In this document: positions 1 to 11,808 of the stretch, piece by piece | Numbering within the stretch: the stretch's first letter is position 1 | How the letters are laid out: every line of letters starts with the position of its first letter | Origin: Gemmatimonadales bacterium | GTDB taxonomy: Bacteria; Gemmatimonadota; Gemmatimonadetes; Gemmatimonadales; GWC2-71-9 | Length of the DNA stretch: 11,808 nucleotides | NCBI GenBank assembly: GCA_039794085.1 | Contig: JBDIWC010000085.1 | Coordinates: 1 to 11,808, forward strand | Direction: 5' to 3' | Position numbers and translations under genes: made by a program | Notes under the pieces: model-generated | Databases searched by the model: none | What the model was told of the DNA's origin: nothing | The model's input: only the letters and a program-made list of their open reading frames with translations

Positions 1-315
1 GCACAAAAGGCACAAAACCTCTCCCCCCCCTGGTGGCAGAGGGGCGTGCCTCTTGTGACTTCTGTGCTTTTTGTGGCCATTCCCCTCGCCCGCCTGACCA
101 CCCGAATCCCCAGGGCGGGTCCCCGGAATCCGGGGCGTCCCCTCGCACCGTGCGCACAACGCCCGATCGACGTGTCTCTCACCCACGCGAAACCCTGAAG
201 AGCCCCAAGTAGGATGCCGTCACAGACGCCGTCAAACACACGGCCGGAGCGGGTTTCCGGGGGGCGCCAAAAATATTGTTGCCGTTTTGTGTTCAATCTT
301 GTCCGTAAGGGACTA
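1..315. mobile_element. Repeat-targeting non-coding element, copy 1 (left part outside window)
   Basis: Ends in AAATATTGTTGCCGTTTTGTGTTCAATCTTGTCCGTAAGGGACTA (271-315), matching 691-735 and 10331-10375. Has an internal hairpin at 1-76, and block 165-270 is homologous to 10222-10330. Confidence 0.7.
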
Positions 316-322
316 TTCCCCA

Positions 323-735
323 AGCCGGCCGAGCCGGAACCACAGAGGCGCGTCGGGGTCGCGTGGGTTCCCCGGGGCCTTCGCCCAGGGGAATGCCAAC
401 CGCTTGGCCACGGAGCAAGTTGACTCGGGTTCACCAGACGGGTCCATCCACTTCAGGGTTCGGCTCTTCCGGCTTCGGCATGGGTTCCTGTCCCTCCGGA
501 GCCCTCTCCCCGCCCCCAGAGCCAACCACAAGAAGCACAAAAGGCACAGAAACCTCTCTCGCCCCCTGGGGGCCCCGTGCGCCCCGAGGTTGTGCCTCTT
601 GTGACTTCTGTGCTTTTTGTGGCCATCCCCCTTGCACGGCGCGGCCGGGGCGATCCACGGGTCTGACGGGGGGGGGGCGGGCGTCGCCCAAAATATGGTT
701 GCCGTTTTGCGTTCAATCCTGTCCGTAAGGGACTA
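323..735. mobile_element. Repeat-targeting non-coding element, copy 2 (413 bp)
   Basis: Starts AGCCGGCCGAGCCGGAACCACAGAGGCGCGTCGGGGT and ends GTCCGTAAGGGACTA. Flanked by TTCCCCA (316-322) and CTCCCCA (736-742). Confidence 0.75.
526..622. repeat. Imperfect inverted repeat CCACAAGAAGCACAAAAGGCACA ... TGTGCCTCTTGTGACTTCTGTGCTTTTTGTGG
   Basis: Arms are complementary by eye. The same arms occur at 1-76 (left arm cut by the window edge) and 10108-10202, with divergent loops. Confidence 0.85.
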
Positions 736-756
736 CTCCCCACTCCCGACTCCCCG
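736..756. repeat. Heptamer tandem repeat CTCCCCA CTCCCGA CTCCCCG
   Basis: Read directly from the sequence. Confidence 0.8.
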
Positions 757-6721: not shown

Positions 6722-6750
6722 ACCCCGATGGCGGCACAGCTCCCGACTTC

Positions 6751-6776
6751 CTCCGCGCCTCCGCGTCTCCGCGTGA
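6751..6776. repeat. 8-bp tandem repeat (CTCCGCGY)3-GA
   Basis: A second copy lies at 10732-10757. Confidence 0.8.
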
Positions 6777-9921: not shown

Positions 9922-10004
9922 GGGGGTAGGGTGTAGGGAGTAGGGTGTAGGGGGCAACGAAAGGCGGTGGGCGGTGGGCGGTGGGGCTGACATCCCATGT
10001 CCCA
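9922..10004. repeat. Three consecutive heptamer tracts: (GGGnGTA)5, (GGCGGTG)3, (CATCCCA TGTCCCA)
   Basis: Read directly at 9922-9956, 9963-9983 and 9991-10004. Confidence 0.85.
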
Positions 10005-10375
10005 AGCCGGCAGAGCCGGAACCACAGAGGCGCGTCGGGGTTTCACGTGGGTCTTCGGGCATGGGTTCCGGTCCTGCCCGAGTACCTCTCCACAGCCCCA
10101 GAGCCCACCACAAGAAGCACAAAAGGCACAAATGTCTCGCGTTCTTGGGAGGGCCTCTCCGCACAGAGGGTGTGCCTCTTGTGACTTCTGCGCTTCTTGT
10201 GGCCATTTGGCGCGGCCGATGCGATCAACGTGTCTCTCACCCACCCGACACGGTGAAGAGCCTCCCAATGGCCAGCCGTCACGAACGCCGTGACCCCCAC
10301 ACGCCCGACGGGGGGGTCGGGAGTCGCCCCAAATGTTGTTGCCGTTTTGTGTTCACCTTTGTCCGTAAGGGACTA
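10005..10375. mobile_element. Repeat-targeting non-coding element, copy 3 (371 bp)
   Basis: Same two ends as copy 2. Flanked by identical TGTCCCA at 9998-10004 and 10376-10382. Confidence 0.78.
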
Positions 10376-10423
10376 TGTCCCATGTCCTGCGTCCCGGGAA
10401 GTCGCGTGTCGGATTGGTATGGA

Positions 10424-10491: not shown

Positions 10492-10570
10492 AGGCTCCTC
10501 AGGCATCGGCATGGGTTCGTGTCCAGCCGGAGTGCCTGACCTCCCGCAGAGCCAGCCACAAGAAGCACCA
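10492..10570. repeat. Isolated fragment homologous to the element interior (461-540)
   Basis: GGCTCCTCAGGCATCGGCATGGGTTCGTGTCC...CAGAGCCAGCCACAAGAAGCAC versus GGCTCTTCCGGCTTCGGCATGGGTTCCTGTCC...CAGAGCCAACCACAAGAAGCAC. Confidence 0.75.
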
Positions 10571-10642
10571 GAGCAGAACGCGGATCTGGAACGGCCTTCC
10601 GTACGGTGGCGACGACGGTGATTCGGCGGGGAGACAAACTGG

Positions 10643-10721
10643 AACCACGAAATACACGAAAACACACGAAAGAAAGCCCCCCTCCATCCCCGTTCGTGTC
10701 CTTTCGCGTCTTTTCGTGGTT
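10643..10721. repeat. Inverted repeat AACCACGAAATACACGAAAACACACGAAA ... TTCGTGTCCTTTCGCGTCTTTTCGTGGTT
   Basis: Three CACGAA sub-units per arm, complementary to the other arm. Confidence 0.85.
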
Positions 10722-10890
10722 GACTCTTCCCCTCCACGGCTCCGCGCCTCCGCGTGACCCGCTGTCCTCTCGCGGGCCACGCCAGGCCCGACCCACGCAC
10801 ACCCGGAGGAGCCAATAATCATTTGCCCTCGTCAGACCGACATTATCTTCAGAACGACACCACCACCTGCCCTTTTCTCAGGACGCAGCC

Positions 10891-11647: not shown

Positions 11648-11696
11648 GCTCCCTCTCCCTATTCCCCTCTCCCTATTCCCGACTCCCTATTCCCTA
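11648..11696. repeat. Heptamer tandem repeat, alternating CTCCCTA / TTCCCnn x7
   Basis: GCTCCCT CTCCCTA TTCCCCT CTCCCTA TTCCCGA CTCCCTA TTCCCTA. Confidence 0.9.
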
Positions 11697-11808
11697 AGCC
11701 GGCAGAGCCGGAACCAAAGAGGCTTACACACTCGGAGCCACAGATACTGCCCGGGTATGCTCGCGGTCTGCGGGGTTCCTACTCCCAAGACCAGATGCGG
11801 CCCGACAC
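11697..11808. mobile_element. Repeat-targeting element, copy 4 (only one end in window)
   Basis: Begins AGCCGGCAGAGCCGGAACCAAAGAGGC immediately after TTCCCTA. The interior then diverges from copies 2 and 3. Confidence 0.65.

Follow-up and report, generated by a model that had tools for sequence, protein, structure and literature searches.

Gene-less mini-elements of a Gemmatimonadales genome share both ends with a widespread element encoding a predicted Rep_trans-type nickase

The genome of a Gemmatimonadales bacterium (assembly G000; 4.16 Mb in 115 contigs, 66.8% GC) carries about a hundred miniature copies of a mobile element, in which both ends of a widespread, apparently unnamed element of about 1.62 kb are preserved. 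These copies are probably moved in trans by the predicted Rep_trans-type nickase of the larger element, in an IS91-like rolling circle, into CCTA and without target duplication. They apparently constitute the non-autonomous tier of a transposon class that has no published description. The window, meaning the whole stretch of 11,808 nt analysed here, is contig C85 of this assembly; G001 and G002 denote the two congeners of the host.

Mini-elements in the window

Copies of end A begin at 323, 10005 and 11697 and those of end B (TCCGTAAGGGACTA) stop at 315, 735 and 10375 (Table 1), exactly where an earlier note, made from the letters of the window, had put them. As that note also held, the two ends bear no inverted-repeat relation to each other in the window. 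Its statement that every junction abuts a 7-mer in the same phase stands, with five independent units behind it instead of six, because the unit at 316-322 had been counted twice, once as following B at 315 and once as preceding A at 323.

Table 1. Features of the mini-elements and their flanks in the window
Feature	Position	Strand	Remark
Copy truncated by the contig start (3' part only), closing with end B	1..315	+	
Lone heptamer TTCCCCA separating two neighbouring copies	316..322	+	
Complete gene-less copy with another mosaic interior	323..735	+	413 nt
Heptamer tract after end B	736..756	+	
Left target flank with the heptamers CATCCCA and TGTCCCA	9991..10004	+	
Complete gene-less copy, end A to end B	10005..10375	+	371 nt
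End A (putative origin end)	10005..10030	+	matches ends of autonomous ~1.62-kb elements
Conserved hairpin CCGGC-nGA-GCCGG within end A	10007-10019	+	
Internal inverted repeat of tandem 9-mers	10108..10202	+	arms 10108-10131, 10179-10202
End B (putative termination end), TTGC..CA(A)..TAAGGGACTA	10338..10375	+	
Right target flank TGTCCCA TGTCCTG	10376..10389	+	
Heptamer tract (yTCCCTA units) that took an insertion	11651..11696	+	uninterrupted in G001
End A of young ~623-nt gene-less subfamily	11697..11808	+	

The elements are placed between ordinary genes; those around the copy at 10005..10375, for instance, are a phosphatase-like gene and one for a glutamine-dependent NAD synthetase. This copy is an older insertion, found at the same site in G001 with 94% identity. 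Its end B aligns without gaps with the 3' termini of relatives, both autonomous and short, the terminal AGnGACTA being invariant in 12/12, and its 9-mer inverted repeat is a cargo module of about half of the complete copies (the two arms occur in 28/56 and 27/56). Two copies run off the contig. The missing A end of the copy at 1..315 probably corresponds to the open end of contig C42, judging from synteny with G001, and the empty site in G001 places the B end of the 11697 copy on contig C51, as far as can be deduced.

Element-like sequence also occurs apart from the copies. An interior module (GGCATGGGTTC..CCACAAGAAGCAC) lies at 10493-10578, 120 nt downstream of end B, with neither end attached. 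Tandem 8-10-mer palindromic remnants of the CACGAAAATA / CTCCGCGC type, resembling the element-borne 9-mer hairpin, are found at 10643-10765 and 6750-6776.

Genome-wide census

Across G000 the two ends co-occur, A being found 98 times and B 100 times. When A and B ends at most 700 nt apart are paired, 56 complete gene-less copies of 194-529 nt result, within which the longest ATG-started open reading frame is 111 aa. Unpaired ends lie mostly at contig breaks, 37/42 A ends and 35/44 B ends being less than 450 nt from a contig end. The interiors form two groups (22 and 21 copies) and minor types, all of them mosaics of hairpin modules. A young subfamily of about 623 nt contributes 27 A ends, 26 of which have at most two mismatches over 105 nt.

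Copies often sit close together. The gaps between a B end and the A end that follows it are 0 (four times), 6, 7 (four times), 14 (twice), 21 (four times) and 22 (twice), so that G000 contains four direct head-to-tail junctions of the form GGGACTA-AGCCGG, hereafter B-A junctions. A separate repeat with GGTTCTTCTCCAATT ends has apparently captured the 3' half of the element, including end B, to form a composite multi-copy unit (C49+ 292, C107-, C16-, C42- and C5-).

The family is present in the congener G001 and not in G002; it was not found in 28 other relatives searched, and the A pattern occurs in none of 200 searched genomes of the class. All 94 insertions scored lie outside predicted genes, as called by a crude gene caller, in keeping with the earlier note's view of them as intergenic. 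That note had also recognised no named family, and searches of Rfam, Pfam and the literature yielded none; in the window Rfam gave only two chance-level matches, neither of them on an element.

The autonomous partner

Elsewhere, a gene lies between the same ends. A degenerate A pattern occurs at no fewer than 119 GTDB loci in many phyla. Among the 119 A ends listed, 27 are followed by one conserved gene, and nine of these loci are full elements of 1621-1672 nt ending in G(G/A)GACTA; 14 other listed loci resemble gene-less derivatives of 78-245 nt under a loose B pattern. The 29-nt A pattern of G000 is found at 87 metagenome loci, 58 of which have the start of this same gene 71-79 nt in, and 26 of the 29 without the gene have less than 150 nt of contig left. 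An exact B-end scan of the metagenomes gave 0 matches. Past end A, the interiors of the mini-elements have no similarity to autonomous interiors.

The gene-less copies and their sharing of ends with gene-bearing elements elsewhere bear out the proposal of a non-autonomous, trans-mobilised family with asymmetric ends. The enzyme classes suggested for it in advance were HUH, IS110, DDE and tyrosine recombinase; none of these fits the gene between the ends, which appears Rep_trans-like. By end sequence and predicted protein structure, the G000 copies are best described as derivatives, themselves non-autonomous, of an IS91-like element whose enzyme is putatively non-HUH.

The gene was not detected in G000 (best E 0.043 by tblastn and 1.2 by HMM) and is likewise absent from the G001 and G002 assemblies in tblastn, protein and profile searches. 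It may have been lost or may not have been assembled; interiors of other multi-copy insertion sequences are also missing from the G000 assembly. When contigs of the source samples were compared with the autonomous element L013 at 80%, X1 and X2 gave 0 matches, and X5 and X6 only pieces that were short and distant, a result that falls short of proving absence. A homologue occurs in 3/120 genomes of the same family, one of them (L313) full-length with an unlike A-end context.

Several relatives depart from the common plan. The full-length homologue L313 (G245:C534) ends in ..GGTAAGTGACTA and apparently has a second, partial start upstream in the same frame. The locus L085 (1927-3426, minus strand) is a 1704-nt element with the same A and B ends in which a DDE_Tnp_1 gene (E 1.9e-7) replaces the Rep_trans-fold gene; it is either passenger cargo or a nested insertion sequence. 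Two plasmid records, L311 and L312, hold distant homologues (23-27% identity) whose end sequences differ and have CCTAG or CTAG close to the termini, which points to subfamilies that use different targets.

The encoded protein

The representative protein, L016, has 500 aa and at least 7987 relatives, which are called 'hypothetical' or 'MarR' where they are named at all; 3828 representatives match it at E ≤ 1e-10, and one RefSeq homologue is annotated as an 'ArsR family transcriptional regulator'. Curated Pfam and NCBIfam models gave only weak winged-helix matches. PF02486 was unmatched by the query at E ≤ 1 and is not among the 25 families listed for 59 members. There was no sequence match in the PDB, and the ESM Atlas returned only clusters of hypothetical proteins.

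AlphaFold models of the protein are confident (pLDDT 92 and 95.6), and residues 389-500 form a winged helix in the predicted model. This domain swamped whole-protein VIA searches. The top Foldseek matches are the Rep_trans structures 4CIJ, 4CWE and 4CWC (prob 0.96-0.99, E 3e-4 to 3e-3). With VIA-align the core matched TBP at Z 7.9-8.2, 4CIJ at Z 7.1 (188 aa, rmsd 4.5) and 4CWC at Z 7.0. The fold match is middling, with TM 0.23-0.32 and TBP slightly above Rep_trans; matches in a viral library are TBP-like proteins and inovirus Rep.

Rep_trans motifs are given as N' (D), I (RxD), II (T/SxY/ExG), III (YxKxxE) and IV (LxRxE) in the available text of PMC5714925. In the present protein D20 is conserved in 54/54 homologues, E243 and Y317 in 58/59 each, K319 in 57/59, and R325 and E327 in 59/59. 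In the models all of these residues are on beta-strands, and their succession along the chain, D20, E243, Y317-K319 and R325-E327, corresponds to that of motifs N', I, III and IV, an assignment made by order and not by superposition. The consensus is matched by D20, Y317-x-K319 and L324-R325-x-E327; motif I reads Q-x-E243 and not R-x-D, and motif II is divergent (K-H-x-x-G). No H-x-H column pair occurs in more than 20% of the 59 homologues, and Y2_Tnp is not among the Pfam matches listed. The protein is predicted to be a Rep_trans-type, that is TBP-fold and non-HUH, tyrosine nickase.

Target site and empty sites

The four nucleotides to the left of end A (n=98) are CCTA in 66 cases, CCCA in 16, CCTG in five, ACTA in four (the tandem junctions) and others in seven, and end B finishes in GGGACTA in 88 of 100 cases in G000. 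In other genomes CCTA precedes end A in 109 of the 117 GTDB flanks listed and 84/86 metagenome flanks, under a pattern that left only the first C free. The target is thus CCTA rather than the TCCC core proposed earlier, the CCCA junctions of the window being a minority form; a shared TCCC core also fails for TGTCCTA, one of the three main units.

Junctions in G000 were compared with 738 kb of G001 and its element loci, covering 37 end clusters or about 30 sites. Seven sites are empty in G001 with a continuous flank (C2, C4/C29, C67, C86/C78, C113/C40, C39/C18, and the 11697 copy of the window with C51), about ten of the ~30 are common insertions, the 10005-10375 copy among them, and ~13 are uninformative, being replaced intergenic blocks or spurious matches to repeats. 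In the other direction, G000 provides the exact empty site for the G001 insertion L134, CCACCACCTA-element-GAACCCC against CCACCACCTAGAACCCC, which is not a tract; at two more G001 insertions, among seven sites shown, the tracts are present in G000 but diverged. Empty orthologous sites with uninterrupted tracts, which the earlier note had said to look for, do exist.

Insertion takes place on the 3' side of CC(T/C)A, no target is duplicated, and the CTA of end B belongs to the element. A 3-bp duplication of CTA was rejected, since B keeps its CTA beside a left flank of CCCA or CCTG. Transduction of a heptamer unit by read-through was also considered; L134, C39/C18 and C67, the cleanest of the empty sites, do not show it. 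The cut can be placed to within one base, at CCTA^A or CCT^AA: the last A of B is present in 88/88 and the A at -1 of the left flank in 66/73 (p 0.003).

Heptamer tracts as landing sites

Flank periodicity in G000 is maximal at 7, with a match fraction of 0.67 upstream and 0.59 downstream against 0.24-0.33 (periods 3-11). A repeated heptamer precedes 73/94 non-tandem A junctions compared with 2.6% of random positions, and a repeated unit precedes 56/66 CCTA junctions compared with 1020/2934 (35%) intergenic CCTA sites, an odds ratio of 10.5 against a background drawn from a crude gene caller at 81% coding. For the young subfamily the figure is 24/27.

These counts speak for the model of the earlier note, in which the enzyme itself recognises the 7-bp periodicity as an evolved safe-harbour strategy. 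Other results make that model very unlikely. Relatives with the same A end have periodic flanks in only 7 of the 117 GTDB flanks listed and 0/86 metagenome flanks, so that the strategy of reading periodic TCCC repeats finds almost no counterpart outside; the site of L134 is not a tract; and some periodic tracts are avoided. By unit, insertions number 19 in TTCCCTA, 16 in TGTCCTA, 15 in CTCCCTA, one in CCGCCTA (of 283 intergenic sites) and none in TCGCCTA (of 95 sites). G at -5 is rare family-wide (12/116 and 3/79), which explains part of this unit bias.

Three unrelated end families also lie in the heptamer tracts of G000 (10/13, 10/11 and 16/20, against 331/5000 random intergenic positions); two other end families do not (1/14 and 0/5) and are presumably ISL3-like and IS3-like. 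The tract users have CACTA[C/G]TGTCCGG ends (C15+, C23+, C110+), the C22-/C33- ends, which we take to be IS30-like, or GGTTCTTCTCCAATT ends (C1+, C36+), and each has its own unit type, TGTCCTA/TTCCCTA or CTTCAAA. Tracts vary in unit, length and presence between the intergenic regions of G000 and G001, and those of G017 are inverted pairs around a spacer of ~50-80 nt. That the element makes the tracts was rejected, because NNNCCTA tracts occur in G009, G017, G020, G026 and G028 without an element match. They are by far the commonest in the two carriers (581 and 859 matches), and the element-free G002 has none.

Targeting of heptamers is strong in G000, and it is local and no trait of the family. 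Given the unit bias, the use of tracts by three unrelated repeat families and the near-absence of periodic flanks in relatives, a host hot spot combined with sequence preference fits better than an enzyme that reads periodicity. Landing in phase likely follows from units that end in CC(T/C)A, from the disfavouring of G at -5 and from tracts being hot spots for several mobile families, and this explains in part the enrichment in tracts beyond intergenic CCTA.

A different selector may lie in the DNA of the element. Its 3' end (..AGGGAC) would pair with TCCC/GTCC just downstream of the nick, or the enzyme would take the opposite strand of the tract, AGGGA[G/A]TA, for an end B, so that yTCCCTA/TGTCCTA tracts would be selected in one of these ways instead of by host accessibility. 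At the copy at 10005..10375 the right flank is indeed predicted to fold back on end B as GGGAC-TAT-GTCCC. Such a fold-back is possible for 78/96 B ends against 964/2929 intergenic CCTA sites, for 15/21 against 220/1720 where left and right units are unlike (p 1.5e-9), and within tracts for 26/30 against 744/1209 (p 0.004), the copies being non-independent samples in all these statistics; the downstream bases are already there at empty sites. Yet only 4/29 B ends in other genomes fold back, three of the four with the same neighbour, CGTCCTA tracts could pair and have one insertion in 147 sites, and the three unrelated families use tracts too. Selection by pairing is therefore regarded as unlikely, and the host hot spot remains the preferred account of the tracts.

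A rolling-circle model

From the target-derived CCTA beside end A, its mimic at the tip of end B and the nick chemistry of Rep_trans enzymes, we infer movement by an IS91-like rolling circle. Rep_trans enzymes nick one strand, remain bound to the 5' side and leave a priming 3'-OH (PMC5714925, available text). By analogy, Tyr317 would nick the top strand at the junction of CCTA and end A (CCTA^A or CCT^AA) and stay on the 5' end of the element, while displacement synthesis, primed by the 3'-OH of the flank, would run from A towards B. The round would close with a second nick, at the target mimic of B itself, GGGACTA, and the outcome would be a B-A circle or direct strand transfer to a new CCTA. 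End A would thus be the origin, end B the terminus, and B-A the circle junction.

The nick of the pT181 family is printed as CT/AATAGCCGG in the part of PMC8407400 consulted; its resemblance to the A junction CCT-AAGCCGG, together with the A that follows B in 20/29 relatives, is only suggestive as to the nick. Joints from B to A do not occur among the contig matches listed, and the evidence for them consists of the four B-A junctions in G000, which could also come from insertion beside an existing B end.

An alternative keeps the origin of the ends and changes the helper: ends descended from a Rep_trans-fold element would now be spread by a host Y1 HUH transposase (RAYT/IS200-like) as REPIN-like passengers. 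G000 encodes five Y1 HUH proteins, with five Y1_Tnp matches in G001 as well, some copies contain REP-like hairpins, and the assembly is without a Rep_trans-fold gene. However, the CCTA/GGGACTA rule of the autonomous elements is kept exactly at the junctions, the five Y1 genes are not flanked by repeats and are each at least 4.7 kb from the nearest element end, and the family is missing from the 28 relatives and 200 class genomes above, while Y1 genes are common. A Y1 helper is accordingly the least probable of the readings considered, and mobilisation by the Rep_trans-type enzyme is retained.

Significance

If the mechanism is true, rolling-circle transposition arose twice, with HUH enzymes (IS91, Helitrons) and with an unrelated Rep_trans fold, and a very large family labelled 'hypothetical' or 'MarR' consists of transposases. 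The mini-copies map the minimal cis ends through their interchangeable mosaic interiors and one relative with a DDE gene as likely passenger, and they show mobility in trans in effect; dozens of junctions and the empty sites fix the target and the lack of duplication. The result is a two-component, scar-free insertion system with short ends that is open to direct test. As a landing pad common to four repeat families, the heptamer tracts also bear on the role of such abundant tracts. A bolder generalisation, which we regard as doubtful, is an unpublished class of rolling-circle transposons with a Rep_trans/TBP-fold tyrosine enzyme, thousands of them mis-annotated as MarR/ArsR, that would spawn MITE-like families needing ends of only ~26 and ~40 nt around arbitrary cargo. 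In G000 its 3' end would choose the target by pairing with the next heptamer, making it DNA-guided and retargetable.

Comparison with known systems

Mini-elements resemble MITEs and other non-autonomous derivatives of insertion sequences in being short, gene-less and high-copy and in retaining only the ends. Classical MITEs of DDE insertion sequences differ in having terminal inverted repeats and target duplication, both of which are lacking here. REP-targeting members of IS110 insert in a host repeat, as the present elements do; PF02371 was not found in G000 (its controls matched in 6/14), and the gene between the ends has another predicted fold. Helitrons, which have end motifs of their own, are alike in their captured cargo, whereas the present element is bacterial with a predicted non-HUH enzyme.

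The Rep_trans/MOBT group (PF02486), comprising pT181 RepC, RepD/RepDE (4CWC), RepSTK1 (4CIJ) and the relaxases of Tn916 and ICEBs1, shares with the predicted model a TBP-like fold and a putative acidic triad with Y-x-K and L-R-x-E on beta-strands. Known members of this group initiate the replication of plasmids or viruses, or conjugative transfer; the protein described here has a larger core (~380 aa) and no sequence match to PF02486, and a Rep_trans profile had no match in G000 or G001. Archaeal Rep-Arvir also bears a MarR-like winged helix (PMC13107129, available text). Rep_trans initiators are not listed as transposases in the available text of PMC5714925, PMC13107129, PMC5703833 and PMC7563843. 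Literature searched at the level of titles and abstracts, with ISfinder and subscription journals outside the scope, contained neither a Rep_trans-fold transposase nor a CCTA-targeting insertion sequence.

IS91 has no inverted repeats and no target duplication, lies with its oriIS beside a target tetranucleotide and forms ter-ori circle junctions (PMC13181058, available text). The present elements share with the IS91 family (IS91, IS801, IS1294) unlike ends without terminal inverted repeats, the lack of target duplication, integration on the 3' side of a tetranucleotide mimicked by the far end, a subterminal hairpin and ter-ori junctions (PMC13181058; PMC5714925; both in part). IS91 differs in its HUH Y2 enzyme and its CTTG/GTTC targets, against no conserved HxH, a predicted TBP-like fold and CCTA here; the gene of the present element, unlike that of IS91, points from end A, the one next to the target, to end B. 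An IS91 Y2 profile matched nothing in G000 and G001, and its control likewise matched nowhere.

The tracts themselves recall the intergenic heptamer repeats of Xanthomonas (GGGAATC) and Nostoc, which are G-rich 7-nt tandem units often arranged as inverted pairs (PMC4692102, available text). Those repeats generally have no association with mobile elements in that account, whereas four repeat families are found in the tracts described here.
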